A stretch of DNA of 64,000 bases from Azolla caroliniana. Lineage: Eukaryota; Plantae; Polypodiophyta. The notes below the pieces were generated by a model that was given only the letters and a program-made list of their open reading frames with translations, had not been told where the DNA came from and searched no databases. Shown piece after piece: positions 3,227 to 29,291 of this stretch; position 1 is the first letter of the stretch; each line of letters starts with the position of its first letter. The position numbers were made by a program, and so were the translations under genes. The stretch covers positions 21,638,001 to 21,702,000 of the forward strand of contig JBHGNT010000007.1 in the NCBI GenBank assembly GCA_043228905.1. Direction: 5' to 3'.

Positions 3227-6200
3227 ATGGAAGGCGGCGGCAGCGGGCAGCCGATGATGATGGTGCTGAATGCGCAGAATTACGCCGACTGGAAGATCAA
3301 GATGGAGGATCTTCTGATTGTTCGGGACCTGTACGAACCGATTGACAGGTCGGAAATACCGAAAGGGGTACTTGAGTCGGAGTGGAAGCTCCTGAACCGG
3401 AAAGCCGTAGCGACGATCCGACAATATGTCGATGTAAGCGTCCTACAACATGTGGCGAACGACACCAACGCATATGAGATGTGGAAGAAGCTGTCGGGCC
3501 TCTACGAGAGGAAGAATGCGTTGAACCGGACCTCCCTGATGAGGAAGATAGTGAACCTCAAGTACCGGGACGGCGAGAGTATGGTTGAACACGTAAGCAC
3601 GTTCATGGGATTCGTGAACCAGCTTGCGGCGATTAAGTTCCCGTTGGAGGATGCAATGCAAGCCATCATCCTGATGTGTACATTGCCAGAAAGCTGGGAG
3701 AACTTGGTGGTGACTCTCAGCACCTCCTGCACCGAAGATAACTTGTCCTTACAAACGGTAAAGACAAGTATTTTGAATGAAGAAGCGCGTCGGAGAGATA
3801 AAGAACCGGCCTCCGACCCGAAGATGTTGTTTACCGAATCGGATCGGGGAAGACAATGGAACCGGAGTCCGCAAAGACGGGAGAAGTCGGGGACCCGGTC
3901 GCAGTCAAGAGGAAGGCCCACATGCTTCCACTGTGGGAAGCCGGGGCACTTCCGAAAGAATTGTCGGCATTACCGAAAAGACAATGGAACCGACAACACC
4001 GATTCGAAGAAGTCACCGGAGAGAAACGGTGCATACCGGGGAGCCACGGACCGGAATGGTTCGGATCGGCGAGGACAGGACCGGAAAGGAACAACGGCAC
4101 TCGCGGCAAGTGAGGAAGAAATCATGCTCATCACCGAAGAAGGTGAGCTAAACGTTGCCGGCGATGAGACGACCTGGGTGGTCGATTCCGGAGCATCGTT
4201 CCACCTGACCCCGGAGAGAAGATACTTCTCATCCTACACAGCCGGTGAGCATGGCTGTGTTCGGATGGGAAATGAAGGTACGTGCCGGATTGCCGGCATA
4301 GGAGACGTGTGGCTGATGACATCAACCGGATGCAAGCTGCTGCTGAGGAATGTGCGACACGTTCCGGAGGTCCGATTGAACCTGATCTCGGCCGGGAGGC
4401 TAGACGATGAAGGCTACACAGGTAGCATCCGGAACGGCGTAATGAAGTTCAGCAAGGGGAGCCTGATAGTGGCTCGGGCCCGGAAAGTCAACACACTGTA
4501 CCTGATGAATGCCCGGTTATGTCCGGAAGAACTGAATGTGGCAGCCGACACTGCCGGTGAGCTGTGGCACAAGAGACTGTGCCACATGAGTGAGAAGGGG
4601 ATGAAGAGGCTTGCAGAAGACAACCTTATTCCAGTGAAGCATGTGCACCTGGAGAAGTGCACCGACTGCCTGGCCGGTAAGCAGAACCGAACCTCCTTCC
4701 ACTCAAGGCCACCGACGAGACGTAGCGCACCATTGGAGTTGGTGCACACTGACGTGTGTCAGGTAGAGACGAAGTCACATGGCGGAGCCCAGTACTTCGT
4801 AACATTCATCGATGATCATAGCCGAAAACTGTGGACGGCACCGATGAAGACAAAGGACCAAGTGTTGTCCGTCTTCAAAGAACTCCATGCGAGAGTGGAA
4901 AGAGAATCCGGCAAGAAGCTGAAAGCGATACGAGCGGATAACGGAGGGGAATACCGAGGGCAGTTCCAGGAGTACTGTCGCTCGAAGGGAATCCGACTCG
5001 AGTTTACTGTGCCGAAGACGCCGGAACTGAACGGGCTGGCCGAGAGGATGAACCGGACCATAATGGAGCGGGTCCGGAGTATGCTGGCGCATGCGAAATT
5101 ACCCAAGGGGTTTTGGGCTGAGGCAATGTCGACGGCGACATACGTGATAAACAGATCACCCTCAGTACCTTTGGACGGAGACACGCCGCAGAAAGTGTGG
5201 ACTGGTAAGGAAGTGTCCTACCGGCATCTGAAGGTGTTCGGGTGTCTCGCATACGTGCATGTGGCAAAGGACCGGAGAGGAAAGCTAGATCCGAAGACCC
5301 GGCCATGCATATTCCTCGGTTACGGCGACGACGAGTTCGGCTACCGAGTATGGGACCCGGTCGACAAGAAGATATTCCGGAGTCGTGATATCATCTTCAT
5401 GGAGAACAAGACGCTCGCCGACTGGGAGTCGGAGAAGAAGATGAAGAGCTCCAAGTCGACCGGTGAGGATCAACTCTACGAGGAGCAGTCCCGACCGGCA
5501 AGGGACCGGTTAGCACTCGAGGATCCGGCCGAAGACAGTGAAGACACAGAACCGGCCGAAGAAGATGAAAATGATACCGGAACCGGCCCCGATCCCGAAA
5601 TGGTCTCGGATGAAGAAGAATCGGAAGAACCGGTTACCGAAGCTCCGGAACGGAGATATCCTCTAAGAGAGAGAAGGGCCCCCCGGAGATTTCCGGAACC
5701 AGAGCACGTGCTGCTAACCGACGAGGGGGAGCCGGAGAGCTTTGAAGAAGCGAAGCATGACACCCAGAGCCGCAGGTGGTTGAGTGCCATGCAGGACGAG
5801 ATGGATTCCCTGCATGAGAACCACACATATGAACTTGTGGAGTTGCCGAAGGGAAAGCGGGCACTTCGAAACAAGTGGGTGTTCAAGCTGAAACCGGGAG
5901 ATGCCGGAAACCCCCCGAGATACAAAGCCAGGATCGTGGTGAAGGGGTTTCAGCAAAAGAAGGGCGTCGACTTCGACGAGATATTTGCCCCGGTAGTGAA
6001 GATGACCTCCATCCGGACGGTGCTGAGCATAGCGGCAAGCATGGACCTCGAGGTAGAACAGATGGACGTGAAGACAGCATTCCTTCACGGTGACCTCGAA
6101 GAAGAAATCTACATGCAGCAACCGGAAGGATTCGAGAAGAAAGGGAAGGAGCACCTGGTATGCCGGTTGAAGAAGAGCCTTTACGGACTGAAGCAGGCTC

Positions 6201-7300
6201 CCCGGCAATGGTACCGGAAGTTCGACTCCTTCATGACCGACGAAGGGTACCTCAAAACGCAGTCCGACCACTGCGTGTTTGTGAAGAAGTTTGAAGGAGG
6301 AGACTTCCTAATACTCCTCCTGTACGTGGACGACATGTTGATCGTCGGACGGGACCAGGTCAAGATACGGATGCTGAAGAAGGCTCTTCACCGAACCTTC
6401 TCAATGAAGGACCTGGGTCCGGCGAGGCAAATACTAGGGATGCACATCATCCGGGACCGGAAGAAGAAGCAGTTGTGGCTGTCACAGGAGAAGTACGTGA
6501 CAAAGGTGCTTCAACGGTTCAACATGTCGGAAGCAAGACCGGTCGGATCGACCCTCCCGGCAAACTGCAAGCTGACCAGCAAGCAAAGTCCCAAGACAAA
6601 GGCTGAAAAGGAGGATATGATGGAAGTGCCGTATGCCTCAGCCGTCGGGAGCTTGATGTACGCCATGGTGTGTACGAGACCGGACATAGGATATGCAGTC
6701 GGAGTGGTGAGCCGGTACATGAGCAATCCCGGCAAAGAGCACTGGAACGCGGTCAAGTGGATACTCCGATACCTGAAGGGCACGGCAAACGTGTGCCTCC
6801 GATTCGGCTCCGGTAAGCCCGAACTCGAAGGCTTTACTGATTCTGATATGTCGGCTGATGCAGATACCAGCCGGTCCACATCAGGGTATGTGATGACGTA
6901 TGCAGGGGGAGCTGTTTCGTGGCAGTCGAGGCTGCAGAAGACGGTTGCGTTGTCAACCACGGAGGCGGAGTACATGGCGGCTGTTGAAGCCGGCAAGGAA
7001 ATAATATGGATGAAGGACTTCATTAGAGAGCTCGGTATCCGGCAAGAGGAGTACCGACTCTACTGCGACAGTCAGAGTGCCATCCACCTTGCGAAGAACG
7101 CAGCCTATCACTCCCGGACGAAGCACATCCAGCGAAGATATCACTGGATCCGGGAAAGGATAGAAGACAAGGAGTTCGTGCTGACGAAGATCCACACCGA
7201 CGAGAACGGGTCGGATATGCTGACCAAGGTGCTCACACCCGACAAGCTGGAAGCATGCCGGAAGAGGATCGGATTGGAAAGACATCCCATGCCGAAGTGA
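3227..7300 (+). CDS. Gag-Pol polyprotein of copia A (~1357 aa)
   Basis: First ATG after the PBS is at 3227. Gag (YADWKIKMEDLL), zinc knuckle CFHCGKPGHFRKNC, PR WVVDSGAS, IN (LWHKRLCH..CTDC, HTDVC, DNGGEY, NGLAERMN), RT (QMDVKTAFLHG, LYVDDML), RH (FTDSD, YCDSQSA, SDMLTK). No stops. Confidence 0.97.
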   Translation: MEGGGSGQPMMMVLNAQNYADWKIKMEDLLIVRDLYEPIDRSEIPKGVLESEWKLLNRKAVATIRQYVDVSVLQHVANDTNAYEMWKKLSGLYERKNALNRTSLMRKIVNLKYRDGESMVEHVSTFMGFVNQLAAIKFPLEDAMQAIILMCTLPESWENLVVTLSTSCTEDNLSLQTVKTSILNEEARRRDKEPASDPKMLFTESDRGRQWNRSPQRREKSGTRSQSRGRPTCFHCGKPGHFRKNCRHYRKDNGTDNTDSKKSPERNGAYRGATDRNGSDRRGQDRKGTTALAASEEEIMLITEEGELNVAGDETTWVVDSGASFHLTPERRYFSSYTAGEHGCVRMGNEGTCRIAGIGDVWLMTSTGCKLLLRNVRHVPEVRLNLISAGRLDDEGYTGSIRNGVMKFSKGSLIVARARKVNTLYLMNARLCPEELNVAADTAGELWHKRLCHMSEKGMKRLAEDNLIPVKHVHLEKCTDCLAGKQNRTSFHSRPPTRRSAPLELVHTDVCQVETKSHGGAQYFVTFIDDHSRKLWTAPMKTKDQVLSVFKELHARVERESGKKLKAIRADNGGEYRGQFQEYCRSKGIRLEFTVPKTPELNGLAERMNRTIMERVRSMLAHAKLPKGFWAEAMSTATYVINRSPSVPLDGDTPQKVWTGKEVSYRHLKVFGCLAYVHVAKDRRGKLDPKTRPCIFLGYGDDEFGYRVWDPVDKKIFRSRDIIFMENKTLADWESEKKMKSSKSTGEDQLYEEQSRPARDRLALEDPAEDSEDTEPAEEDENDTGTGPDPEMVSDEEESEEPVTEAPERRYPLRERRAPRRFPEPEHVLLTDEGEPESFEEAKHDTQSRRWLSAMQDEMDSLHENHTYELVELPKGKRALRNKWVFKLKPGDAGNPPRYKARIVVKGFQQKKGVDFDEIFAPVVKMTSIRTVLSIAASMDLEVEQMDVKTAFLHGDLEEEIYMQQPEGFEKKGKEHLVCRLKKSLYGLKQAPRQWYRKFDSFMTDEGYLKTQSDHCVFVKKFEGGDFLILLLYVDDMLIVGRDQVKIRMLKKALHRTFSMKDLGPARQILGMHIIRDRKKKQLWLSQEKYVTKVLQRFNMSEARPVGSTLPANCKLTSKQSPKTKAEKEDMMEVPYASAVGSLMYAMVCTRPDIGYAVGVVSRYMSNPGKEHWNAVKWILRYLKGTANVCLRFGSGKPELEGFTDSDMSADADTSRSTSGYVMTYAGGAVSWQSRLQKTVALSTTEAEYMAAVEAGKEIIWMKDFIRELGIRQEEYRLYCDSQSAIHLAKNAAYHSRTKHIQRRYHWIRERIEDKEFVLTKIHTDENGSDMLTKVLTPDKLEACRKRIGLERHPMPK

Positions 7301-7310
7301 AGGGGGAGTT

Positions 7311-7908
7311 TGTTGGGATTTCGGTCCCTTTCGGATGGGATGGTCGGATATCGGAGATGAATGCCGACAAGCCCGGTTTCGGTTTCGGATCCGGATGACG
7401 AAGACCCCGGCTTCGGTGCCGGATGACGAATGTACCCGGAGAGCGATCCGGATGCAGGGACATATCCGTGAATATGTTCGCTACGAGCCCCCTGAGGCTA
7501 TAGTTGTAAATAGCCCAAAGTCATATAAGTATAAATATGACTTAGGGCAAACAGTTTTTCTGTTGCTTCTCATTTTTCTGTTTTTCCACTTTAGAGGAGT
7601 GAAGAGAGAGCAGCCGTGCGAGAGAGAAAGAGGTAGACGCCTCTGTGTATTTCCGCCGCCTGTGGCGAGGACAGCGAGCTCAAGGTCGTCGCCTTGGAGC
7701 TCGTCATTGTATACTTCTCTGTATAGTGTTGTTTGGAGTCTTGTACTCCCGTGGTTTTTCCCCGTTTAGGGTTTTCCACGTTAATCCTTGTGTACTCGCG
7801 TTTCTTCGTTTTGTTTCTACGTGTGTTTCCTATTTTCTGCTCCATTGATCCGCGATTAATCGGTTGTGGCCGAGATAAGAAGGTGGATAGAAGGGCCTAT
7901 TCCTTACA
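7311..7908 (+). repeat. 3' LTR of copia A
   Basis: Direct repeat of 2600-3197, preceded by the PPT. Confidence 0.97.
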
Positions 7909-8451
7909 CAATGGAAGCTTAACACATAGAATATGCACGGGAGAGATAGAGAGAGAGCAGAACGTAAACTCTATTCAAAAATTAATAACACTCTATAACT
8001 CTATACATACAATATGCTTGATAGCACTATTTATACAAGTCCTTGAAGGACTGGCGGAAGCACCATGTACTTCAATGCTCATACGAGTGGCTGACACTAA
8101 CTACGAGGACTCTGTCTACCAAGTAGTCTAGACGCGTATAGGCTACTACTAGCCTTCTGGTGCACATTTGAATACAGCTCCCCGATCAGGCTCATGGTTT
8201 CGGATATCATCTGGTTCTTCCCTCCGGATACCGATCCGGATCCAATTGAACTTGCTCGCTCAACACTCCCCCCCTCAAGCTCAACTTGACGTCGGATCGT
8301 GGTGTCAGTGTCTGTAGTAGCCGGTCCTTGCTCGCGCTCCTCGTCCGGTCCGGTTCTGCTTCCCACGACCCTTCCGGTTCTGCACTCCTTGACCTCCTTG
8401 GTCGGCTTGTCTGCTCAGCAGGCCCATCTCAACTCCCTTGTTGTTATGACT

Positions 8452-11400
8452 TTAGTGCTTGTCGAGCCATTGGTTCCTCCGTTTCGGTGTTGACTTCCGC
8501 TTGGCCTTTAGTTGATCCGGCTCTTCCGAATCCAACTGTTGAACCGGCTCTTCCGAATCTGCTTCCTCTGATTCGTTCCATCTCTTGTCTGAGTTGATAG
8601 TCTCCAACTCGTCTTCCGTTTTTAGGCCCGTCACCACATCGGACCACATTTGGGTCTTGGCCTTCTTCCAATCGGCTTTGTCCTTCTTGACTCTGCCGCC
8701 GCTGCCGTTTGCTCCGACTGGTTCGGATGTGCCGATTCCTTCGGTCGGCTCGGATTCCTTTATCTGCTTATCTCCCCCCTTGGTTCTTTCTTCCTCTTCG
8801 GCTACTTGTCCGACGGTGCCATCCGTTCCCGTTCCTGTTCTCCCCCTCAAGTGCAGCACATTGAGATGTTGAATCCCAAGCATCTCCGAAAAATGTTGCA
8901 ACTTGTCCGATTGGAGTGGCTTGGTGAAGATGTCAGCAACTTGACGATCCGTGTGAACATACCGAAGTTCAACTTCACCGCTCAGGACCCGCTCACGAAC
9001 AAAGTGATAATGCACTTCTATGTGCTTTGTTCAAGCATGAAATACAAGGTTCTTGGCGAGTTGTATGTTGCTTATGTTGTCACAATAAATCAGGATCGGG
9101 GTCGGCACCTGGATCCAGAGGTCTCGCAGAAGTTGCCAAAGCCAGATGGCTTCACAGGTGGCAATGGTAGCGCCCCGGCATTCAGCCTCAGTGCTCGACA
9201 GAGCCACTGTTGGCTGCTTTTTGCTACTTCACGCAATAGCCGCGCTACCAAAAGAAAACATCTAACCAGAGGTGGATCGACGATCCGATGCATCACCAAC
9301 CCAGTCGGCATCGGTATATCCGACTAGCTTCCCAACTATACCATGTCGGTATAACAATCCCTGGTCCTTCATGCTGCTAACATACCAATGTGCGCACTGA
9401 AGGTGCTCGACGATCGTCTTCTGCATGAACTGGTTGATCACCCTGACTAGATAACTAATGTCGGGTCGAGTGATTGTCAAGTATATGAGGCTTCCGACAA
9501 TTTGTCGGAACAATTTCTCATCGCAAGGCGGTCCGGAGTCAGGACATAGCTTCAGGTTTCGGTCCAGGGGTGTAGAGATCGGTTGGCATTCCGTCATGCT
9601 GAACTTCTACAACATATTCAACACATAATGGCATTGTGAGAGCAATATGTTGTCGGGGGTCTGGATCACCTCGATCCCAAGAAAATAATGAAGGTCCCCC
9701 AGGTCCTTCATTTCAAATGCGTCCGACAGTTGGGACTTCACTTCGCCGATTTCATCGAGTTTGGGTCCGGTGATGACTAAATCATCTACATAAAGCAAAA
9801 TGCAAACCGGACCGTTCCGGATGAACAATGAAGAGTTGGACTTAGAGGCCACAAACCCCATCTTACGCAACCGGTGCGTGATCTTTGCATTCCAAGCTCG
9901 GGGGGCTTGTTTCAAACCGTAAAGCGACTTCTTGAGTCGGCACACTGCCGAGTTGTTCATCTCTGATTGGAAACTGGGGGGTTGGGTCATATAGATCCGT
10001 TCTTCAAGGTCACCTTGAAGAAACGCATTCTTCACGTCCATTTGGTGAAGATGTCATCCCCTTGTCGCAGCAACAACCAGTACCACACGAACCGTCGCCA
10101 TCTTCGCTACCGGAGCGAAGGTCTCATCGTAATCGATTTCGTGGGTCTGTGCGTATTCCTTTGCCACTAACTGGGCCTTGTACTGGTTGACTGAACCGTC
10201 AGCATTGTACTTCACCTTATATACCCATTTGCAACTGATCGATTTACACTGTCAGGGAGAGTCAACCAGGTCCCATGTGTCGTTGGCATCAAGTGCCCGC
10301 ATTTCTTCCTCCATAGCAGCACGCCAATTTGCGTCTTTCGTTACTTTTGCGTAGCTCTCAGGCTCATGCACTTCTGCCACCTTAGTCATGTACGCATAGT
10401 GATGCGCCATGTACTCATTGTATTCGTACCTCATGACGGTTTTCTTCTGACGGGTTGATCGGCGTAACTCTTCGTTACCCAGTTTGAGGCCCTTCTTGGC
10501 TGGTTCGGACTTCCTTTCTGAAGATCCGCCTTCTTCCTTTCCGGGGTCAGATTCGTTCCGATCCGACCCTTCACAACCGGTACCGTATTCCAACATCTTC
10601 TTCTTCCCCTTCTCTTTGTGCGTGAATTGTCTCCTCGGTTCCTTGCGCGGGGAGAGCACAACAAAGTCTCCACTACTCGCCAGTTCTTCACCCGATTAGT
10701 CATCCCGAATCAGTCGCTCATTTTGCCCACTTAGCTAGAATGAGCTCGGACTCTCTTCTAGAGTGCCGAAGTTTTCGTCTTCTACCTGGACCTCTTCGGG
10801 CTCACTAGCCTCATCTTTTGGAATCGGGTTGGATTCGGACGTTGGAGTCGGTAGAGAGTACCATGATGCCGACTCATCAAACTCAACATCTCGGCTTACT
10901 CGGACCTGCTTAGTCCAGGTGTTATAACACTTATACCCCTTCTGCTCATGTGAGTAACCAACTAGGATGCACTTCTCCGACTTCGGATCCAGCTTCCTCC
11001 ACTTCTCATCCGGTATATGCACATATGCTATGCTATCGAATATCCGAAGGTGCCTCAAATTCGGCTTACGCCCGAAATACAGTTCGTGTGCAAACACCTT
11101 GTCTCTGATCCGGTTTTGGATGTAGACGATTGTCCGTATTGCCTCAACCCAGTAGAATTTGGGCATGCTCTTCTCCTCCAGCATTGCCCTCGCCGCGTCA
11201 ACAATCAACCGGTTCTTTCTTTCAGCCACACCGTTTTGTTTCGATGTGTACCTGCAGTTGAATTCTCTCCGAATTCCCTTCTACTGCAGATAACTGTTGA
11301 ATTGGCCATAAAAGTATTCTTTTCCGCCATCCGACCGCAGGCACTTGAACTTCCTCTTCGTTTCCCTTTTGACTAAGCTTTGAAGGTTCCGGAAACAGTC

Positions 11401-12644
11401 GAAGACTTCACTTTTCTCCTCGATGAGGTAGATCCACATGTGCCAGTTGTAGTCGTCGATGAAGGAGACGGAATACCGAATCCCGCCAAGACTAACATTT
11501 TGTGTCGGTCCCCATACATCCGAATGGATTAAGTTGAGCTTGTTACGGCTCTGGTTTCGTTTGGTGGGGAAAGGAAGCCGGTGTTGCTTCACAAGTTGGC
11601 AGGCTTCACAAATTTGGGCTTTCCGACCACTGAATTTCGGCAATCTGAACACAACCTATTTTGATTGTAGGTCTTGAAACCTCCGGTAATTGACGTGGCC
11701 AATCCGTTTGTGCTAGAGATCGATGTCTGATTCAATATTTTGTCCTTTGGCAAACATGGCAGTGTCGACGCCATTAGTGTTGAGGATGAACATCCTCCCT
11801 TCTCTGGGCCCTTGTGCAATTATCCGGCCTTCTTCCTCGATGAAGCACCAGAGGTGCGTAAACCGCACCTGCATCCCCTGGTCGACGATTTGTCCAATCG
11901 ACACCAAGTTCTTTGTGATAGTCGAAATGTGTAGTACGTTCATCAACTTCCCCTTTTGTCCAACATGGCTTAAAGGGACTTCTCCGACATGCACAATCAG
12001 GTGAGGGATGTCGTCTCCGGTTTCGACAATCCCCGGTTGTTCCGGTTTCTCCAAAAAAGAGAACCATTCTTCATGGCTCGTCATGTGGTTGGACGCTCCG
12101 GGATCAACGTACCATACTTCCTCCGATTTGGAAGTAGTCTTCTTCGTCGAGTTAGCCTTGTGCTTCATCACGAAGGTTGGTCCTTTACCGGTCTTCCCGG
12201 TTCCAGATCCTTCTGCATAGTGCGAGCTTTGCCGGTTTTCCCGACCGGCTTTGCCAGATCTAGATTTGTTCGAATCAGCGCACTTTTTCCAGCACTCGCT
12301 TTCCATGTGGCCTTTCTTGCCACAGTACCAACATTCTGTGTCGGCCTTTCCTTGCCGGTTTCCGGCACTGGCTTGACTCCCCTTGCTTGTGGAGGGTCCG
12401 AAACTACTGTCGGCACTGTCTCTATGCCTTCGGTCTTGCTCCTGTCGGCCATCTCCATTGCGTGCTGAACCACCGCGGCCACCACGGCCACGAGGCCGAT
12501 CCGCCCCCGTGTACAACATCCAATTGTCCGATTGAGTGGTCCTAGACCCACTCATGTGGTTTTCTTTGACCATCAACATCGATTGTAAGTCAAAGAAGGA
12601 CAGTGGTTACTCCCGGGTGCAAATTGTCGTCCGGATTGGCCCGT
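8452..12644 (-). pseudogene. Disrupted gag(C-term)-PR-IN-RT-RH of copia B
   Basis: ORF fragments 11713-12579 (CWYCGKKGHMESEC, DPGASNHMT), 11281-11652, 10735-11229, 10252-10659, 9607-10041 (MDVKNAFLQG, LYVDDL), 9262-9597 and 8452-9015, separated by stops and frameshifts. Confidence 0.92.
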
Positions 12645-13290
12645 TGTCGAGGTATTCCTCGCAGATGCGTGGAATGAGGCGGGGCCTCGAGGGTCTTGTA
12701 CCGAAGAGCAAGAGACAAAGGAGAAGGGAAGGGACCCACTACGTGTGGGCGTAGATTCACAGGGGCACAGCCCTTCGACACAAAGACGCGAGTGGGACAC
12801 CGACGCAGAGAGACACGAATGTATGTATATATATATATTAACAAGGACAAACAACAAGAAGCACGAAGTCGGTTACAACCGAACAGGCCGGCGAATAGAT
12901 GCCGATGCCTGTTCGTAAACGCTCAGAAAGAAAGGAGTAGGTTGGAGGTGCTGCCGGAAGCACTCGGGCATTCCTCAGAGCAGCGCGAGCCTCTCGAAAA
13001 CCTGCACAGAAAGAAGCTACGGAGTATGGAAGAGAGAGAAGCCTTCGGCCGACAACCCGACAGCACTTCGTCCTCTCTAACCGTGATCCTTCCCCCCTCC
13101 TCGTCTCCCTCCTTTTATAGGCAAGGAAGGAGCCGTTTCCCATTAACTTCCTACCTACCGAATCTACCTACCTAGGATCTTCTATGTACCTAATTCTCTC
13201 TTATGTACAACATAAGGCGTACGTGCATGAAGAGCCGGTTCCTACGCTCCGGTGCACCGATTCCGCTTGTGGACGGTTTTCTTCACGACA
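12645..13290 (-). repeat. 3' LTR of gypsy C
   Basis: Direct repeat of 19325-19970. Confidence 0.96.
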
Positions 13291-13363
13291 TCCGCCCCCA
13301 CCTAACCGCGCATCCACCGGCATGCGCCAAATTGAGTTGGGACGGAGAAAACCGGTCCAGCCT

Positions 13364-16300
13364 TCATTCCCCGCCCGTCGGTTCTTCCTCGGTTTCTGAT
13401 CGTTCGTCGTCGCGGTCCAGGTTAACCGGATCCAGCTCGTCGTCGTGACACTTCTTGAACGCTTTGATCCGCTTCCCAGCTACCGGTATCGCCATTCTCG
13501 TGCCGTTGAGTTCCGCCAGATGGTACGTCCTGTTGTCGTTGGCGCTTTGTACCACGTAAGGCCCGAACCACCTTCTTGCGAACTTCCGTGTCACTCGGTG
13601 CTGGTTGTCGAGGCTGCTGTCGTAGACTAGCACCCAGTCGCCTTCCTCGATCTTCTTCGGTCGGAGCTGGTGCGTTCGGTCAAACCGGGCTTTGTTCCTC
13701 GTCCTTGCCACCCGAAGCTTTTCCGCAGCCTGCTCCACGTCCTCCGGTCTTCGCTCGAGCTGTCGTATGCGCGCCGCCAACAGTTCCTCCCGGCTCATCT
13801 CGTCTCTCCAGTCCACGGTTGCCCATGAGGAGATCGTACGTTCCATCGGCATGATCAGCTTTTGCCCAAACATGAGCTCTGCCGGCATGAATCCGGTTAC
13901 CGAACTGTGCGTAGTTCGGTACGCCCACAACGCGTAAGGCAACAGTCGCGGCCAGTTCCCGACTTGACCTCCGCATGCCCGAACTAACGCCTTGACGATC
14001 GGTCTGTGTCCGCGCTCCACCTTCCCATTCGCCTCCGGATTGTACGCAGTGGTAAGCGAGAGCTTGACCCCTAGCCGGTCGAACAGCTCCTCGGCCTCTT
14101 CGGCGTCCAACTCCCCGCGATCAGCCACGATCTTCCCGACGCACCCGTACCAGCATATCACGTCCTCGATCAGGAACCAACATACGGCCGTGGTCGTTTT
14201 GTTCTGAAGGGCTCGGCCTTCCACCTGGTTCGTCAGATCTTCCCGAGCCAGGACCAGATACCGCATCTGTCCTACTCCCATCGGCATCGTCACCAGATCT
14301 ACCATCCATTTGAAGTGGATGGTCGGAGGGTACGTAGGGTGAAGCTCGTCCCGATGTCGGACTATGGAGTGCATCTGACAGCTCTCGCAAGTTGTCACGA
14401 ACCAATGCACGTCCCGATACAGTCCCGGCCACCAGTACTTCCCCTTTATCTTCTCGAACGTGGCCCACATTCCACGGTGTCCAGCCCAAGGGCTGTCGTG
14501 GTAGGCCGTCAGCAGCTCCTCCTGTTCTTCCTTCATCGCCACCACCCGGAGCGGGACGCCGTTCCTCTTCTTCGGGTGCTTCCATAAGTATCCGTCCTGG
14601 AGAAAGAATCGGTATGCTTTCTTCCGGATCCGGTTGGTCTCGTCCCTCGTCCACGACGCATCCGACGTCATTGTCCTCAAGAAACCACCGATCTGGAGCC
14701 ACTCGCCGTCGTACTTGCTCTCGTCGAAGCCGTTAAGCGCCGGAGTGCTCGTCCCATCGGTCGTCACGTACGCCGCCTCGAAGAAGTCCACGCCGACTTC
14801 TTCGTCCTCCGAAACCATGCCGCCCTCGTTATCAAACCTCGCCCTCGAAAGCATGTCGGCCATGGCGTTGTCCTTTCCGGAAATGTGTCGTATTTCCGGG
14901 TCCAGGGACTTGATGTACGCTATCCACCTAAGCATCTCCAGGTCCGGTGTCGCGCATCCGGAAACCATGCCGAGAATTGGCAGGCAATCCGTCTCGATAA
15001 TCACTTCTGTCCCGATCAGGTAGTCTTTGTCGGCCTTTACTGCCGAAACGATACCCCAGAGTTCGCGTTTAACCTGGGCGTACCCTCGCTGTCGCTCACT
15101 GAGGACCTTTGCGCCGAATCGGATCGGGAACCGAATGCCGTCCTCGTCTTCTTGGTTGACGACCCATCCGATCCCGGTCGGACTCGTATCCACCGTTATG
15201 TATACGGGGTACCCTTCTCGTAGACAGCCTTCCGGAGCACCGGTGCTGCCGTAAGAGCTTCCTTCAGCTTCCGGACCGACTCCATGTGCTCATCTCGCCA
15301 CTCGAATTTTCGCCCCTTCTTCAGCAACCCGTATAGCGGCTCCGCAACGTGGGCGTAATGCGGGATCCATATGTGGTAGAATGTGCACGCCCCCAGGAAC
15401 CTCCGAACTTCCGTAACCGAGCTACAGTCGGTCTTCATCGCAGAGATGGCTTCTACTTTTGCCGGAGACGGTTTCCGGCCATATGGTCCACATAGATGTC
15501 CGACCACCAGGATTTATGATTGCCCGAAGGCCGATTTCTCCCCGGAGAAGGTGAGCCTCGCAACCTCTAGCCTTTGTAGCACCTTCTCGCAGTCGTCGAT
15601 GTGTGTTGCCACGAATCGCCGGCATCCGTCCGGCCCGAGTGTCTCGTCCTTCTCTTCCACCGGGCACCCCTTGATCGGGATGTCGTCTAGAAATGGCATG
15701 GTGATGTCCGGGATGCAATCCCTCAGTACCTTGTTCATTGCATTCACCATGTGGGCCACCGAGTTGGTCCCTCCTTGTGGCAGGGTACACATTCGCACTA
15801 GGCCGAGGGGAGTTCACATCGTCGTAATGTCTCTACTCTTCACGGCTAGCTGGAACTGGTCGTACCCCGAGTACAGGTCACCGACCGAGTAAATCGACCT
15901 TCCGACGAAGGCCTCCGCGAACTTGTCTATGGTCGGTCCGATTCCTGCGTTCCGAATGGTCACTTTGTTGACCGGCTGCAGGTCTTGAATGAAGCGCAAT
16001 GTTCCGTTTTTCTTTGGTACGGTAAACCACCGGTTCGAGTATGGGGCACTCGACGGTTCGAGAATGCCCATATCGACTATCTACCTCAACAGCTCCATCA
16101 ACTTCGGGATGTGAGCTCTCGGTATTGGAATCGGCTTGAGATTCCACGGCACATGCGGTACCGTGAATATCACCATCGGCTCCACGATTGTCGGGTCTAC
16201 GCACCCGATCTCTTCTGGTGAGAATGCGAAGGCTTTCCCGTGCCTTCCGAGCATTCTCCGAAACCGGTCTTCCTCCGCCGGCAGTAGGAACCCGCCCCCA

Positions 16301-16860
16301 CCGATTTTGAGCTCCCGGAGCGTCCCGTCGGTGAAGGTGTGTCCTATGCAGACCGGATCTCGCAAACTGGGGTCTGACGCAACCCCTCTGATCCGAGACT
16401 CGCTGCCCTCCGGTAAGGGTGCCGCGACTGGCCTTACCTTCCGGTCCACAGTCTTGTACTTCGTGCTAACCCGGGCCGTCTGATCCGACCCGAGCCCCTG
16501 ACTGAAGTTCGCGATGACTTCGTACATCTCTTCGGAACATACCGGTATCGTCCGTTCTTCGTTAAGGTCTTCTCCGGCTACCTCCCTCAGCATCCCCAAG
16601 GTGTCGTCGAAGGAGACCGCCTCCACAGCTCCGTTGATTTCCTCGTCCGGGCCGAGAACTCCGCACGCTCGAAGTCGCTCCTCCGCCCTTGCCTTTTCTC
16701 GGCCAACGATGCCAACTATCATACACCCTCCGTCGTTGGAGAAGAAAAATTTTCTACCTATCGTACAAGGTTTCTTCGGTTTCGGTTCTGTCGTACAGCG
16801 GTGGGGTCTTTCCCGAGTGTTCGGACTGTCTCGGCCCCACGCCTTGGCAGCCCTCTCTAA
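13364..16860 (-). pseudogene. pol (RT-RNaseH-integrase) of gypsy C, disrupted
   Basis: RT (PYSNRWFTVPKKNGTLRFIQDLQPVN, DLYSGYDQ, LPQGGTNS, PFLDD), RH (DTSPTGIG, ETDC, NAMADMLSR), IN (H..H..CESC, DLV, DRGE, EANGKVERG, GPY). Premature stops at 16081, 15814 and 15514 and a frameshift near 15200. Confidence 0.93.
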
Positions 16861-16866
16861 AAATCC
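16801..16866 (-). promoter_or_regulatory. Putative -1 programmed ribosomal frameshift signal (G_GAU_UUU plus pseudoknot)
   Basis: ORF1 ends GAG GAT TTT TAG. The -1 frame is open from this point into pol. A 6-nt spacer is followed by GGGCTG/CAGTCC and GTGGGG-CCGAG/CTCGG-CCCCAC complementarities. Confidence 0.7.
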
Positions 16867-19308
16867 TCTCGGTTCTTGCCACCGAGGGATTCGCGATTTC
16901 GCTCGTGGTTCGGTCGCACCGTCAGAAATTGAACCGAATGGCGCTCGTCCTGGCTTTTGACCCTCGCGTAGGCCGAACCGTTGTCTAGCACCTTGGTCTC
17001 CATCCGCGCCGCCATGATGTATGGTTCCCCTAATATGACCGGGTGCGAGGACGTCTCCTGTACAAAGAAGTGCTGGTCAACCTCGACGTCGCCGATCTTG
17101 ACTCGCACATTCGGGTAGGCCCCGTGCAGTTCCTCGGTGGCGCGCGTCGCCGCCCGTATCTTCCACCCGTGCTTGGTGTTGATCAGCCACTTTCCCTTCT
17201 TATAGAAGTCCATGGACATCAGGTTTATTTCCGAACCGTGGTCCACTAGTGCCACCACCGGTTCCTGAACATCTCCGATCTTTACCGGGGTCTCCGTGGT
17301 CGCTCGGGCCCAGTGTGGCCTCGAATAGTGGCTCTCCGCCCACTCATCTTCCAGCGCCAAGTCGTCGATGTGTGTCGTCCGCACCTCCACCGGTCTTTCC
17401 GGTTCCGTCTCCGTCGACAGCCTCTTCCGCTTCACCAAGTCCACAATGGAGTCGTGGAACTCCTTCTTAGCGATCCCTAGCACCTCCCGCAATGACAACT
17501 CCACTTTGCTGTCGAGGATCCATTCTTCTAGGACCTTTCGTAGGTCCGTGGTCCTTTCTATTTCCGTCCCCAGTCGGTATCCGCCCTTCCTGGGGTTATC
17601 TTGCGCGCTGGACCCACCGGCATCGTTCCGTCGTTGCCCGAATCGGGTCTCGTATCGTTGTGAGGGCCCGGCCGCTCCGGCTTTCCCTACTCGTTTGTCT
17701 TCTACCAGAGCCTCGTAGTTCCGGCAGGCGGCTTCTACGAAGCCTGTCTTCTCCTCGACCGGGTCGCTCCACCCGGTTATTTCCCGGACCCGTCTCTCAG
17801 CGCGGTCCGCTTCATCTTTCCTCAGCTGTGCGTCGGCGAGGCCTTCCAGCATTGCCAACCAGAATCCTTCTTTGCTCTCCTTTCGGGCCTCGCTGCCCCC
17901 GACCCGAATACCGGCCGACGCCGAGTAGTGGTTGCCCGAATCGGGTCTCGTATCGTTGTGAGGGCCCGGCTGCTCCGGCTTTCCCTACTCGTTTGTCTTC
18001 TACCAGAGCCTCGTAGTTCCGGCAGGCGGCTTCTACGAAGCCCGTCTTCTCCTCGACCGGGTCGCTCCACCCGATTATTTCCCGGACCCGTCTCTCAGCG
18101 CGGTCTGCTTCATCTTTCCTCAGCTGTGCGTCGGCGAGGCCTTCCAGCATTGCCGACCAGAATCCTTCTTTGCTCTCCTTTCGGGCCTCGCTGCCCCCGA
18201 CCCGAATACCGGTCGACGCCGAGTAGTGGATGGCCTCCACGTGTTGGGCTGCTGCCTCTTCCATCAGTCTCTTCATACCTCCTCGCCCGTCGTTCCGGTT
18301 TAGGGCCCTTCTGGTATCGCCGGCGTGCACCCGGCCTTCCCATAGGTACACCACCCAGTTCCTCAACGCCTCTGCGAAATCGCCGCAGTCCTTCCGAATG
18401 TGGCCGACCTCGTCGCACCACATGCACCTGTTCCTTGCTACCGGCCGTCGGTCACGAGCCGGTTCGCCGCCTTCCCTTCGAGTCTAGGCGATCTGGAGAT
18501 CCTTTATCGCCCGCGTCAACTCCTCCAACGCTGCTCCTCCGGACGAGTCATTGACCATGCCGATCGGAGCCGACCCGGTTTCGAGCCACTCCCGGGTCTC
18601 TGCCCTTCGCCCTTGCGGTGCCGGTTCAAGCCTCCTTGCTATGACAGAGCCCGCATCGGCCGCCCCGTTGTCAGCCCATTCTCGCCATTTGTCGAAACGG
18701 CCACAGACTCTCTTAACCGCAGCCCAGTCGGTCGTCAACCCGTCTTCGGTTTCTAGTAAGGAGCCAACTTGATCCCGGTCCCGCTCGTCCACCGACTTGA
18801 CGAACAGTAGGACACGACTCGTATCCAGAACGGTTCGGTCAAGCGCCGAGAGGCGCGCAAAGCGTTCCTCAAACTCCCGGAGGAGTGCCGACGCGTTTCT
18901 TCCCTTGCCGGGGAACTCCACCCATTCCATGAAGTCCCGTTTCGAAAGTCGGAGCGCGTCGTCCAGCCCATATTTTTCTACGAGTCGGCCTTCGAACTCC
19001 TCCCAGGTACGGCTCTCCGCCCGTACCTCGAGCACCTCCGCATGGATGCTCGGCATCGCCACTCGAGGGAACCCGGCAAGACGCCTCTCTTCCGGAATGT
19101 CCCGCATCAGCATTTCTGCCCCGTAGGACGCCAAATACTTCGTGGCATCCTTCCCGTTGAACCGGCCGATCGTACCGACGACCACCTCAATGGCTCTGTC
19201 GAGGGCGCCGGTGCCCTCGCGTGCGCTCAATACCCGATCCACGGCCGAAGCCATGGCCTCCGCAAGATCCGACCCCTTCATCTTCTGCTCTTCTGCCACC
19301 TCTTTCAT
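16857..19308 (-). pseudogene. gag-protease ORF1 of gypsy C, disrupted by a stop (18484) and a 298-bp duplication
   Basis: Gag-like region (GRFNGKDATKYL), zinc knuckle CMWCDEVGHIRKDC, aspartic protease ALVDHGSEINLM...VILGEPY. Confidence 0.88.
17633..18228. repeat. 298-bp tandem duplication inside gypsy C ORF1
   Basis: 17633-17930 is repeated at 17931-18228 with ~6 transitions. The peptide AMLEGLADAQ...ETRFGQ appears twice in the ORF track. Confidence 0.95.
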
Positions 19309-19321
19309 GTCGGGTTCACCA
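19304..19321 (-). promoter_or_regulatory. Primer-binding site complementary to tRNA-Trp
   Basis: TGGTGAACCCGACATGAA, 3 nt inside the 5' LTR. It matches 17 of 18 nt of the complement of the plant tRNA-Trp 3' end as I recall it (...TTCACGTCGGGTTCACCA). Confidence 0.8.
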
Positions 19322-19324
19322 AGA

Positions 19325-19970
19325 TGTCGAGGTATTCCTCGCGGATGCGTGGAATGAGGCGGGGCCTCGGGGGTCTTGTACCGAAGAGCAAGAGACAAAG
19401 GAGAAGGGAAGGGACCCACTACGTGTGGGCGTAGATTCACAGGGGCACGGCCCTTCGACACAAAGACGCGAGTGGGACACCGACGCAGAGAGACACGAAT
19501 GTATGTATATATATATATTAACAAGGACAAACAACAAGAAGCACGAAGTCGGTTACAACCGAACAGGCCGGCGAACAGATGTTGATGCCTGTTCGTAAAC
19601 GCTCAGAAAGAAAGGAGTAGGTTGGAGGTGCTACCGGAAGCACTCGGGCATTCCTTAGAGTAGCGCGAGCCTCCCGAAAACCTGCACAGAAAGAAGCTAC
19701 GGAGTATGGAAGAGAGAGAAGCCTTCGGCCGACAACCTGATAGCACTTCATCCTCTCTAACCGCGATCCTTCCCCCCTCCTCGTCTCCCTCCTTTTATAG
19801 GCAAGGAAGGAGCCGTTTCCCATTAACTTCCTACCTACCGAATCTACCTACCTAGGATCTTCTATGTACCTAATTCTCTCTTATGTACAACATAAGGCGT
19901 ACGTGCATGAAGAGCCGGTTCCTACGCTCCGGTGCACCGATTCCGCTTGTGGACGGTTTTCTTCACGACA
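19325..19970 (-). repeat. 5' LTR of gypsy C
   Basis: Direct repeat of 12645-13290; TATA-like CTATAAAA on the minus strand near 19795. Confidence 0.96.
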
Positions 19971-20452
19971 CCGTACCATTGTGTTAGACCATCGAGACAA
20001 ATTTGGACCATCTCGTCTTCGTCCACCGTCACATTAATGGACCCGAGCGCGTCACAAATCTCTTTTATCTTGGTGGTGTAGTCCGTAACCGACATGTCTC
20101 TTTGCCGAATGTTGTTCAGCTCTTGCCGGAGCTGCAACTTTCGGGCTATGGTACTCACGGAGAAAATCTTTCGTAGATTTTCCCAGGCCTCCTTCGGCGT
20201 CTTTGCATCCTTGATGTAGTCGAGCATCTGATCGTGCACACCGAATGTGAGGCAGTACAATACTCAGCTCGCTCCTTGCTCCCATGCCGGGAAGTCCTTG
20301 TGTGCCGGCTCCGACGCTACCTCGTTGGTTCCTTCCACGTAGCTCCAATATCCATGCCCCAGCAGGTACTGGTGCATTTTATATGACCAGCACGCATAGT
20401 TGCTCCAGTCAAGCTTCTCTATCGGAAGTGAACTCGCCATACCTCTGTCCAT
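19971..20452 (-). pseudogene. N-terminal gag of copia B
   Basis: LPIEKLDWSNYACWSYKMHQYLLGHGYWSYVEG...KTPKEAWENLRKIF...MSVTDYTTKIKEICDALGSI, with an internal stop at 20264. Confidence 0.9.
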
Positions 20453-20545
20453 ATCTTTCTCGGTCTATCCTTACCGGGTATCAGGGTTTGTCTTCAAAAG
20501 CGTATGTCGACTGCAGAGGTTCTCAACCCTCACGCTCTGATACCA

Positions 20546-20643
20546 TGTGAATGTGAACGTGCGGAAGCGTATTACAAATCGGCTCTACCGGATAGCAACA
20601 ATAGAGAGAAAGGTTCAATGGAAGCTTAACACAGAGAATATGC

Positions 20644-20710
<67 letters not shown>

Positions 20711-21033
20711 AAGAGAAAGAGAGAGCAGAACGTAAACTCTATTAAAAAATTAATAACGCTATATAACTCAGTACATACAATATGCTTGACAACACTATTT
20801 ATACAAGTCCTTGGAGGACTAACGGAAGCAGCATGTACTTCAATGCTCATACAAGCGACTGACACTAACTATGATGACTCTGACTACCTAGTAGTCTAGA
20901 CGCGTATAGGCTACTACTAGCCTTCCGGTTCACATTTGAATCCGGCTCCCGGATCTGTCTCTTCGATCTAGATATCATCCGGTTCTTCGTTGTGGATACC
21001 AATCCGGATCCAGTTGAGCTTGCTCGCTCAACA
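20546..21033 (-). repeat. 5' LTR of copia B, containing an expanded (GA)n microsatellite
   Basis: TG...CA termini. The (GA)n run at ~20646-20725 is much longer than in the 3' LTR. Confidence 0.93.
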
Positions 21034-24000
21034 CTCTAGAACTTCCTAGAACATTCTAGAAAACCCTAAATTGTTCCACGATCCACTATATAATGAAGGC
21101 TCCTCACTCTCTCACTACCTACCAGCATCTCGCATATTTCCTTCCATCATCATTCTCTCCCGCACACTCTATCCACAACTATCTCGTCTATCCCTTTCAT
21201 CACCACTCTTTCTCTTGCTCTTTCTATTGTTATTTTGTCTCATTTCTGATAGGAGCTCGTCCTCAAGATGGATGCCTAATATTCATTGTGTATCATGTGT
21301 TGGATTACATTTGTTGTTTGTTAGCAAACTAGCATCTCTATTTGTCATTATAGGTTGACTAACATTTTTTGTGCCAACAATTCATTGGCCAAATGGATAT
21401 CACATTGTCAATTGTCATGGCCTCATCGTCAACACTTAAACTTCTTTGGTAAAATGAAAGAAATAATGTATTAATGCAAAAAGAGAAAAAAAGGGGAAAG
21501 AATATTAACAAACAATCGAGAAAGAGGTAATATAATCTTCTCTTATAAATATATATGTATATAATGAAGTTGAGCAATAAAATACTTTCTATTGAAGTAG
21601 AAATAAAATATAGTTTTTTGAGAGAATAGTGGCAATGAATGAGAGAGAGAATAGTTTTCTTACAATCAAAGAGAGGGCTGTGGAAGTCGACGTTGGGAAG
21701 GTATCATATCTTCACTTATGGAATAGTCATGAAGGGGTAATGCCAACAAGAGATCAATTTGATAAAATGCATACTTAATTTGACTTGAGACGATTTTCCT
21801 AGAGTTTTATGTGTTTTTTAAATATAGTAAAGTAGTTTGTGTGTCATATTCTCTAAAGCCTTCAAAAGACATAAACCTCCATGAGCATATGTTATTGGAA
21901 GTTGGAACTATAGATACACTTAATTTGATAAAACTAATGGAAAATACAATCTTATTTGTCAAGAAAACCACAGTGATCTATTTTGTTTGTCATGCAACAC
22001 ATTCATCTTGATAATTACGAACCCATTTATAATGTAGTCTCATCGTTGCCATGTCTTGTTCAATCTAAGAGAATGTTTTGGCTGCTTCTTGTTAATCTAA
22101 GAGATCATATCCTTTAATTTATTATACCTAGACGTTAATGTGTCACAAGAGTATATTTCCAAACCCTTACAAGAGTCATCAATGTGTGGTTATTGGATAC
22201 CCCACAATTCCAACATGTTTAATTGAGATGTTGTACATGGGCATGCCTTGAATTCTCATTGTTTCTCTATGTAACATTAAGTGCACATATGTTTTATGCT
22301 CTAGTAATTAATGTTAGTATTTTTAATAGTGATATTAATGCTTGCAAGTCCGCAAACTAGCCCACAAGTTTGAATTTTGTTTTTGACAATACAACCTATG
22401 GTGCTATTACTACTAAAGGTATACTTTCCCATTGGATTCATGAGTGTGGTGTTATTGCTTTGATTTATCACTCAGCTCACACATCAAAGGGATGCCTCCT
22501 TATTCCACTAGTTGGACTCGTTTTTAAGGTGGTAATGCTATAACTTGAGATGTTATCGAACCAAGTATCTTAGGTAGACCTCACATGAACCCATATATAC
22601 ACTATGAGATTATGCAGCCAATATTGGATGACAATGCACTTGGCCATTCACAAAGCACTACATATTTATGTTTGGCAAAAAAACATGCACGACATAACTA
22701 CCAAAATGTAGTTTCAAAGGATGATACCACAATTGAATCCATAAAGAAAATGTTTTTTGAGCATGACATTTTTAAATACAAATCATATGTGTGGAGGATA
22801 ACATAAATTGTAGATAAGTCTCAAACTGTGTGTGAATGATGACATTATGTTTAAACTATTAAAATATGCTTATATGTAATTCACTATGACACCTCGAGTT
22901 CCAATCCAACATTGAATACTAAAGTGTGATTTTTCGCAAGTTGCCTTTAAATGTTGTAGTATGAAATGGCCCAAATTTGGGAACCGCCGAGAAGCAAGAG
23001 CCATGTCCTACTCAACTTTAATAGTTCGCTATCAATACTTGTAAACTTAGGAGAGAATTGCACCCCATAATAGACTTGCATTAACTTTCAAAAGTTGTTA
23101 GATAATTTCTACTTTAACCCGATTTTCGCTGCCTGCCCTCCTTGCTTACATGGCACATCACTAAAGAAGAATTTCATATCCTTTGTCTTTTTTACTCTTA
23201 TATAAATATCATATATCAAGTGGGATGTGAAATAGCCCCTTCCAATGACAAATTTGTTCATGCCTGTCCTGTGCCTTTGGTCTCCAATCACAACATATAT
23301 TAAATATGCTGGAATGTTGTTTAAAAACGTTATTTCGATTTCTTTTAATTGGAAATTGGAATATTTGATCGACCCGCATAAAGTCAACAAAATTCTTACG
23401 AGGAATGAAATAGCATACGTAAGAGATCATGCAATGTATCGAACTTTCTTGTATTGATTGCGTGATCACAAACTTTGTTGTCACTCAAGCGCACACTTTA
23501 TAACTTACATAATTCACTTGGACCAAATCATACGAACAACTCAACTTGTTCTCATATGTGAACTCATTATAGAATCTAAAGGTCCCAGAGCTAGGACAAA
23601 ACAGTGATGTTTGAATGTGAGCACAGAATCCGTGCATGTTCGTCCCCCGCACGGGTCTAAACTCCATGCATAGTACATGTTCTTGGTAACATCAGATGCA
23701 TAAACCCTAAACCCATTCTTCGGCGAGCAGTCGCAATAGAATGAGATGGAACTGCAAAATTGTGGTGGTTGACAAGGTGAAAGATGTTATTGGGCGGGGG
23801 CCATCATTGACAACAATGTTGGTAGAGAGAGAGAGAGAAGTAACTACTAACAATACTAGTCAATGGTGTCGATCACGTACTAGTACAAAAAAACAGACTC
23901 ACCTAAGTTAGTGAAAGGGACAAAACATCAACCTGGTCAATGGGAGCTACGGGGAGCATGTTCCTTCGGTCCGAGGGGTGAAAAAGTACCCGTGATCGAA

Positions 24001-24991: not shown

Positions 24992-27900
24992 ATGAGCCAT
25001 TATGGGTTAATACAAGCTCTTCAGCCCCTCCACATGATCCCTGTCTCTATCCTACTCATCTGCTTAGCCATTAATCCTCTTCAAATCTTACAAGCTCTGC
25101 AAACTGACCCACAAGATGGTATGGAAACTCCGATTTCCATACAAATTTTTCGCCAGATTTTTTTTTGAAGTGTATTGAGCGAATTTATACAGTATATATA
25201 TATATATGATTCGATTTCAAAGGCGAAGATCATTAGAGATGTCTGATTTTCTGCTTGTTTTTACATGGCATTATGTGGTTAATCAGTGGAGTTAGTAATT
25301 AATCAGCTATGGCTATGATCTTTTCAGTGGAAGCACTCAAGCTTCTCCATGGAGAGTGGTCAGGAAATCCACAGTGGGATTTCAGCACAGATCCCTGCAC
25401 AGATGGATGGCAGGGAATCAGATGTGGCGATTACTCTGCCTCCTCTGCAAATAATCAAGGAAATCGCGTCACATCCATGTACATGTTTTTATTTATTTTT
25501 ATCAATCAGATCAATACAGGAGGCTATTCAAGCTCTGCAGAAATTCAATCACCAAAATTTGTTTAGATATGTACAATGAATTCGGAAAAAGGCTCTTAAA
25601 ATCGAATGGAACTTAAAGATATATAATCACTCCATTTGGCGTTAAGTGATTTCTTTTTTGTTCAAACCCTAATTATGGTGTGGGGATTGATCTCAATCAC
25701 CAAAATTTGTTTAAATCTGTACAATGAATTCGGAAATGGCTCTTAAAATCGAATGGAACTTAAAGATATATAATCACTCCATTTGGCCCTAAGTGAATTT
25801 TGTTTTGTTCAAACCCTAATTATGGTGTGGGATTGATCTCAATCACCAAATATATGCTTAAATCTGTACAATGAATTCGATAAAGGCTCTTAAAATCGAA
25901 TGGAACTTAAAGATATAATCACTCCATTTGGCCCTAAGTGAATTTTTTTTGTTCAAACCCTAATTATGGTGTGGGGATTGATCTCTGATGAATTCTCTTC
26001 TGATTTTTTATGATCGATACAGGCTCCTTGCTAACCTGGATTTGAATGGCACCCTGCACCCTGCCATTGGCAATCTCTCCTCCTTATTGTACATGTGAGT
26101 GATATTCATTCATTAATCCTCCACATATTAATCTGTCACGATCAGTCTCTAATCCTCGTTAATTGCTCTCCTTAATCATTTAACTAATTCTCCTTATCCC
26201 TTGATTTGATTGCTTTCATTAGCTCCGCTAATTAGATCCTCTAAATCTCTAAAAAATTGAAGATGGATCATGATGAATGAATCTAATATGACTAAATTAC
26301 ACAAGTTTATATGAATAATTACACAAGTTTATATGAATAATTACACAAGTTTATATGAATAATTACACAAGTTTATATGAATAATTACACTAATTACTCC
26401 CCTAATTTGTTTACTTTCATTAGCTCCGCTAATTAGATCCTCTAAATCTGTAAAAAGTTGAAGATGGATCATGATGAATGAATCTATGCCTGAATTACAC
26501 AAGTTTATGTGAATAATTACACTAATTACTCCGCTAATTTGTTTACCTTCATTAGCTCCGCTACTTAGATCCTCTAAATCTCTAAAAAATTGAAGATGGA
26601 TCACGATGAATGAATCTATGACTAAATTACACAAGTTTATATGAATAATCAGGGATCTCTCATCAAATTCGCAACTCCGAGGTCAGCTTCCATCGGAAAT
26701 CGGGAAATTGAAACAAATCAAACGATTGTAAATTACTGAGATTTAACTTCAATCAATCATATTGTAATCCTGGGATTTCTGAATTGCTCTTGTAATTGAT
26801 CAAGCTTTTTGTTGGGTTTTTTTTCTGTTTTTTTTTTGTGGTATCAGTTATGTAATCTCTTGCAATTTCAGTGGATCGATTCCCACGGAGATTGGGGACA
26901 TGACCCCATTAGAGTTCTTGTAAGTATCTCCATACAAAACATTACATCTTTAAAAGCTAATGAATGCAGAGATATCAGTAAAATGATGGTGATGGTAATG
27001 ATGATTCTGATTTATACCATAATTATGCTTGAAAATGTATTACATCTCTAATAGCTAATGAATGCTGAGATTCTGATATCAGTACAATGATGGTGATGAT
27101 TTAATGGTGATTCTGATTTTTATACCATAATTATTATGCTTGGAAATGCTAATTAATAGGGGATTAGCAAACAACTCATTCACGGGACCAATACCGAATA
27201 GTGTCGGAAATCTCCTCAATCTCAAGTGGTTTGATGTCTCTGACAATCTCCTCTCCGGAGAATTGCCCGCCTCGAGCTATGGCATCAATGGGACTTCGAC
27301 GGTTGGATTGGATAATCTCACAAATGCAGAACACATGTGAGTCATATAATTCATCATCATCATAGAAATTAGTTTAGTAATCGATGATTAACTACTAGTT
27401 TAGTAATCGATGATTAAGTACTAACTTATATAAATTAGTTTAGTAATTGATGATTAAGTACTAACTTATATAAATTAGTTTAGCAATCGATGATTAAGTA
27501 CTAATAACTCATATAAATTAGTTTAGTAATCGATGATTAAGTACTAATAACTTATAGAAATTAGTTTAGTAATGGATGATTAAGTACTAGTAACTTATAT
27601 AAAATAATGTAGGAATAACTAATAACTTATAGATATTAGTTTAGTAATCGATGATTAAGTACTAATAACTTATAGATATTAGTTTAGTAATCGATGATTA
27701 AGTACTAATTTATAAAAATTAGTTTAGCAATGGATGATTAAGTACTAACTTATATAAATTAGTTTAGCAATCGATGATTAAATTCTAACTTATATAAGCT
27801 AGTTTAGCAATGGATGATTAAGTACTAACTTATATAAATTAGTTTAGCAATCTATGATTAAGTACTAACTTATATAAATTAGTTTAGCAATCAATGATGA

Positions 27901-29202: not shown

Positions 29203-29270
<68 letters not shown>

Positions 29271-29291
29271 CATACACATACACATACATAT

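Follow-up and report, generated by a model that had tools for sequence, protein, structure and literature searches.

The retrotransposon family described here, a Phygy-like lineage of Ty3/gypsy elements, very probably relies on programmed −1 ribosomal frameshifting, at a site directly behind the protease, to make its Gag-protease-RT-RNase H-integrase polyprotein, and the probability of this reading is estimated at roughly 0.87. It was deduced from the sequence of one copy in the window (the whole 64,000-nt stretch of Azolla caroliniana DNA that was analysed) and of its relatives, which were drawn from metagenome contigs and sequencing runs. The reading is based on the arrangement in two ORFs with pol at −1, the conserved slippery heptamer with its stop codon, the covariation in stem 1 of a predicted pseudoknot, and the coding constraint seen in the −1 frame from the junction onward. 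The mechanism itself is familiar from viruses, and its lineage-wide use behind the protease in retrotransposons of seedless plants appears to be new, as does a likely −2 variant in one branch.

The window copy occupies 19970-12645 of the minus strand, and all of the features given for it below are on that strand; its 7,326 nt include a duplication of 298 nt. Its 5' LTR (19325..19970; 646 nt, TG...CA) differs by 14 mismatches from the 3' LTR (12645..13290; 646 nt), the two being 97.8% identical, and the target-site duplication (TSD) ACGG, of the NCGN type, is present on both flanks (19971..19974 and 12641-12644). The primer-binding site (PBS), TGGTGAACCCGAC (19309..19321), presumably matches plant tRNA-Trp and recurs in 25 of the 80 related loci, while a purine-rich tract adjoining the 3' LTR (13291..13307) is likely the PPT. 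The LTR pair, PBS, PPT and the domain order GAG-PR-RT-RH-INT are those of a Ty3/gypsy element. ORF1 (16857..19308, starting at 19308) encodes Gag with a CCHC zinc knuckle (18385..18426), DUF4100 and a retropepsin-like protease domain (16896..17291), which has D-H-G-S instead of D-[ST]-G and matches Pfam Asp_protease_2 with an E value of 0.0015, under the curated cut-off. The D-H-G-S motif (17235-17243) was found throughout the close family, with DSGS or DTGS in the same column in more distant relatives (38-40% identity). Pol (13364..16860, −1 frame) comprises a linker of about 125 codons, RT, RNase H and integrase.

The window copy is dead, and the frameshift signal is still visible in it. Its ORF1 is broken by a stop (18486-18484) and by the 298-nt tandem duplication (17630-17927/17928-18225), and its pol has three stops (16083, 15816 and 15516) together with a break of frame near 15205-15217; an intact ORF1 homologue (P0001) has 717 aa and is 86-88% identical. 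Since this copy carries stops in both gag and pol, the frameshift claim concerns the family. An older, decayed copia element (about 2524-21036, minus strand; LTR pieces 7941-8268 and 20709-21036, 87% identical) harbours the gypsy element as well as a young, intact Ty1/copia element (2600-7914, plus strand) in a three-element nest. The young copia has 604-nt LTRs that are 99.5% identical and one ORF of 1,383 codons, and was seemingly inserted in an LTR of the older one. Farther along, two paralogous LRR receptor-like kinase genes (25300-34278, plus strand, and 42215-47582, minus strand) stand face to face, with introns rich in tandem repeats; intron-rich receptor-kinase exons of this kind point to a plant host.

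The element was placed as Phygy-like by its TSD type and layout, which fit that lineage, rather than by a tree against REXdb references. Phygy is listed with a 4-bp NCGN TSD, and 81% of its members have a tRNA-Trp PBS (PMC6317226), a type to which the PBS here may belong. The likeness in TSD extends to the compact internal region, to relatives in Physcomitrium patens and to the absence of a chromodomain or additional RNase H; Pfam searches of the window pol pieces and two intact Pols detected no chromodomain, aRH or extra ORF. The element differs from Phygy in being shorter (7,326 nt) than the listed 7,656-9,968 nt, which is a descriptive range (PMC6317226), and in having relatives in Adiantum and Riccia as well. 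The named relatives were from Physcomitrium patens, Adiantum nelumboides and Riccia sorocarpa, the Physcomitrium proteins being 48-65% identical across the protease region. No relative of the element was found among viral contigs.

At the junction, ORF1 ends GAGGATTTTTAG (16868-16857), which reads G_GAT_TTT_TAG. The heptamer G_GAU_UUU (GGATTTT, 16860..16866) is in the ORF1 frame, and the stop codon TAG (16859-57) lies inside a 6-nt spacer, TAGAGA (16854..16859). GGATTTT followed by a stop occurs only once in the window, both strands counted. All of the letters quoted for this junction in the preliminary description were found where it had placed them, and its proposals that the site follows the protease and that the −1 frame runs without a stop into pol were borne out: the site is downstream of the protease-like domain, and the −1 frame, which is the pol frame, is open from 17076 to the stop at 16083. 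Three features of a canonical −1 signal were present, namely a heptamer of the G_GA variant in the 0 frame, a −1 ORF open from the site, and a predicted 3' structure within 5-9 nt. Such sites and spacers had been described as already established, and passages of PMC5009743 support this. The start of pol at ATG 16722, proposed in the same description, did not hold. This ATG is private to the window copy, and since the codon is ACG, ACC, ACT or ACA in 12 of 13 close relatives (the remaining one being unaligned), pol does not start there.

The junction was then compared across the family. Scanning metagenomes yielded 129 related stretches, and 80 were retained as loci; 22 of these were truncated, leaving 58 which, with the window, made up 59 complete junctions. 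ORF1 was closed by GGATTTT plus a stop in 45 of the 59 (TAG in 20, TAA in 13, TGA in 12). The codon before GAT took 10 forms, every one ending in G; in the ORF1 background, third-position G had a frequency of 0.35, GAT was used in 193/443 cases and TTT in 67/226. The remaining 14 junctions consisted of 2 single-base variants, 3 later stops, 2 sites of the form AG_GUU_UUU and 7 damaged or chimeric sequences. Where a long pol frame (at least 550 codons) opened at the junction, it was in the −1 frame in 22 of 24 loci and in the +1/−2 frame in the other two, and many of the −1 frames had 1,076-1,201 codons. None of the 24 was in frame with ORF1, so the single-frame family with a private indel that had been set out as the finding that would overturn the preliminary reading was not what was observed. 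Shared ancestry and, for most loci, an origin in a single series of related assemblies mean that these locus counts do not represent independent events. In four DNA runs with three organism labels, no indel at or above 2% was detected across 16500-17200 (3,679-4,725 contigs per run). No heptamer variant was present among the variants listed (40 of 239), which alone proves nothing. Per-column conservation of the heptamer was circular, the loci having been chosen on it, and only the contrast between stem (0.80-0.89) and loop (0.40-0.56) columns was used.

The same ending was seen in proteins. Among the 120 ORF1 proteins listed of 219, 91 finish at, or five residues past, D-F, N-F or G-F: 62 end in DF, 3 in NF and 2 in GF, and 24 have the dipeptide five residues before the end. 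A residue lacking any G-ending codon was never found before the dipeptide (0/91, compared to a background of 28.6%). Moss, fern and liverwort records were included among the D-F-type ends, the evidence there being at the protein level. N-F and G-F are the endings expected from A_AAU_UUU and G_GGU_UUU, respectively, and G_GGT_TTT was seen in the DNA of one locus (L052).

The structure predicted behind the site is an H-type pseudoknot. The 5' strand of stem 1 (GGGCTGCC, 16846..16853) includes GGGCTG (16853-48) and its 3' strand (GACAGTCC, 16823..16830) includes CAGTCC (16828-23). Stem 1 therefore exceeds the helix originally drawn, having 8-9 bp (16853-16846 with 16830-16823) and one C-A mismatch in the window copy. 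Stem 2 is formed by GTGGGG (16835..16840), in the stem 1 loop, and CCCCAC (16801..16806). When 34 distinct junctions were aligned without gaps, pairing in stem 1 (up to 9 bp) reached 89.9%, and in 3 of its 9 pairs both partners had changed; GTGGGG:CCCCAC was 87.3% paired with 1 of 6 pairs so changed, register shifts occurring in the latter. The structure as a whole was 88.8% paired, compared to 35-47% in slid controls; the number of covarying pairs alone was no better than in shuffles (108/500). Of the pseudoknot in the preliminary description, stem 1 stood and covaries and GTGGGG:CCCCAC was kept; compensatory changes are present in stem 1 and thin in stem 2, alongside the conserved GGATTTT. 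Its third pairing, CCGAG (16834-30) with CTCGG (16817-13), was rejected as a conserved helix, being 43.5% paired versus 98% for stem 1 and 87% for GTGGGG:CCCCAC.

An H-type scan, which sums stem energies only and used search windows chosen after the data had been seen, gave −25.7 kcal/mol for the window copy, a value reached by 1 of 60 dinucleotide shuffles. With a spacer of 3-6 nt, an H-type stem pair was found in all 20 chosen loci, the score being reached by 0-2 of 60 shuffles. A nested, pseudoknot-blind fold of the window copy was no better than shuffles (z 0.11), and Rfam had no family for the region, returning two weak matches with E above 8. In several copies the nested fold prefers alternatives, such as a hairpin in loop 3 (L002-type) whose formation is in competition with the base of stem 1, and L019 (3858-3925) has a second GGGACA able to capture the stem-2 partner. 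These competing hairpins could constitute a conformational switch that tunes the rate of shifting. A second class of junctions (L055, L052 and L041) has a different sequence with the same predicted topology. Moss and fern proteins that end x-x-[MV]-P-L-stop are accounted for by this class, whose spacer and stem 1 encode that tail. The ORF1 stop is located inside stem 1 in L052 and L041, and the last ORF1 residues are consequently set by RNA pairing.

The linker, defined as the stretch from the pseudoknot to the first common Met, bears on the alternatives. In 12 pairs its pN/pS was 0.44 in the −1 frame versus 1.00 and 1.14 in the other frames, and pS exceeded pN in 12 of 12 pairs, one further pair having been left out for misalignment. 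The linker is thus constrained in the −1 frame and is therefore deduced to be translated as pol, being neither intron nor leader. This purifying selection weighs against the possibility that Pol is made from a spliced mRNA from which the stop has been removed by an Ogre-like intron between protease and RT. Splicing has a precedent in Ogre, which uses an intron at the same PROT/RT boundary according to passages of PMC6317226, and Physcomitrium and Riccia gene models do connect ORF1 to pol via predicted introns, several of the Physcomitrium models departing directly after D-F-G. The donors and acceptors differ among models, however, as would be given by gene predictors bridging a frame change, and the junctions of the fused Riccia models are inconsistent. 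Furthermore, Pol matches longer than 1,300 aa (19 of the 120 listed) were all Riccia gene models, and the others had at most 1,261 aa. Poly(A) reads on a close relative (L003) numbered 460 in three runs of one study (135, 98 and 227; 12-13% of each run read), and none contained a joint; this evidence is weak because depth was low and both orientations were present. Splicing is accordingly considered quite improbable. In the UniRef/NCBI models of Physcomitrium and Riccia, gene predictors were observed to cross the junction by way of made-up introns that vary from model to model, and the fused proteins that result are false.

Separate initiation of Pol (by reinitiation, an IRES or a subgenomic RNA), with the structure serving that purpose or packaging, is considered just as improbable as splicing. 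It draws on a Met that is common about 100-110 codons into pol, and the stop right behind the site would permit termination-reinitiation. The later Met is nevertheless absent in L019, L020 and L055, the first Met falls anywhere from 1 to 109, and no start codon is common to the relatives, ATG 16722 being private as noted above. The stretch upstream of the later Met is itself constrained as coding in the pol frame, and neither the frame-specific conservation of the heptamer nor its N-F and G-F variants would be explained. Less probable still is slippage of the polymerase, rather than the ribosome, on the U run, with an extra U in some transcripts. The site does contain five consecutive U's, including that of the stop, and five to six are present in the +1/−2 clade; second-class sites, however, have only 3-4 U's, and a stem 5-6 nt away suits a ribosome. 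RNA reads showed no 1-nt insertion and only one in-frame 9-mer indel, at a depth of 4-20 that is too low for a rare event. A 1-nt indel private to one dead copy, in a family that otherwise has a single ORF, to which the several further breaks in the window copy might point, can be dismissed on the frame counts and the four DNA runs described above.

In the preferred mechanism, −1 frameshifting, the ribosome would pause with GAU UUU in its P and A sites and the predicted pseudoknot 5-6 nt ahead, and tRNA-Asp and tRNA-Phe would slip from GAU UUU to GGA UUU. A minority of ribosomes would enter pol and the majority would halt at the adjoining stop codon. The protease would then be part of every product, with RT, RNase H and integrase confined to shifted products, and only these three would be rationed by the shift.

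Two loci, L037 (2836-2900) and L042 (2498-2560), depart from this pattern. Their ORF1 ends CAG GTT TTT (GAC/TAC) TAG, giving the site AG_GUU_UUU. The −1 frame is closed at once in L037 and after four codons in L042, and the +1/−2 frame is long (1,150 and 1,097 codons, respectively). Both retain a strong predicted class-I pseudoknot with the GG core 5 instead of 6 nt from the site. In a tree that left out L029, they and P0023 make up a clade (100/99) that falls within a supported group of −1 type elements. Clusters matching this clade contained 35 members for ORF1 and 54 for Pol; five ORF1 members, full-length or C-terminal, were compared and end alike, and the Pol starts agree too. According to passages of PMC7618472, AG_GUU_UUU is the arterivirus −2 site, and spacers shorter by 1-2 nt favour −2 slippage. 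These data suggest that the clade has likely switched from −1 to −2 slippage. The spacer argument is weakened because several −1 subfamilies extend stem 1 to a 5-nt spacer, and the shift may alternatively be a +1 shift on UUU, the resulting frame being the same for both. The arterivirus nsp2TF −2/−1 site has the identical eight letters, and in L037 and L042 the −2 frame is the long one. As described in passages of PMC7618472, however, nsp2TF works in the absence of an RNA structure and depends on proteins bound to a CCCANCUCC motif, which lies 10 nt downstream, whereas in L037 and L042 CCCANCUCC is absent and a strong predicted pseudoknot stands at 5 nt.

Look-alike protein clusters were mostly from Basidiomycota among the members with a record, and the window family may resemble fungal Ylt1-type gypsy elements. 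A broader reading can be proposed, for which the odds appear about even: a gypsy lineage of mosses, liverworts, ferns and probably basidiomycetes would share a post-protease pseudoknot frameshift in at least two rebuilt pseudoknot classes, with one nested clade switched to −2 by AG_GUU_UUU and a stem-core distance shorter by 1 nt, RNA structure alone being the stimulator. If true, the −2 switch would allow the spacer-tension model of frameshift direction to be tested on a case supplied by nature. For work on plant ribosomes, the signal would provide a compact frameshift cassette of endogenous origin that exists in many natural variants, the likely change from −1 to −2 among them, and the frame change would explain the spurious introns in moss and liverwort gene models.

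No description of the signal was found in searches of the open-access literature, and per-element REXdb tables or older papers on fungal Ylt1-type elements may mention it. A passage of a 2016 review, referring to a 2003 survey, gives +1 layouts, and no others, for plant elements whose frames are split. In the REXdb table, overlapping frames at PROT/RT are found in none of the plant lineages; in Tcn1, Selgy and some SIRE the frames do overlap, but at GAG/PROT (PMC6317226). The ORF organisation of Phygy was listed there as not determined (PMC6317226), and this gap in the 2019 plant classification would be filled by a −1 signal at the protease/RT boundary. The Ogre spacer was shown to be an intron and Retand has an in-frame stop, both at PROT/RT (PMC6317226), whereas the window family has a −1 overlap at that position. 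Intron, stop and −1 signal would then be three answers to one ratio problem.

The closest likenesses to the site itself are viral. PEMV2 (an umbravirus) and the dianthoviruses have the same heptamer, G_GAU_UUU, with a stop codon close behind, and the nearby stop matters for efficiency in PEMV2, as given in passages of PMC5009743. The same source describes in these viruses a stem-loop and pairing kilobases away, in contrast to the compact, local H-type pseudoknot predicted here. Gag-pol of Rous sarcoma virus likewise combines a −1 slip, a 3' pseudoknot and Gag-Pol at a low ratio (passages of PMC5009743). It differs in belonging to a bird retrovirus and in having another heptamer and a more complex pseudoknot. 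The Gag of Rous sarcoma virus includes the protease, and its stop codon lies directly behind the site.
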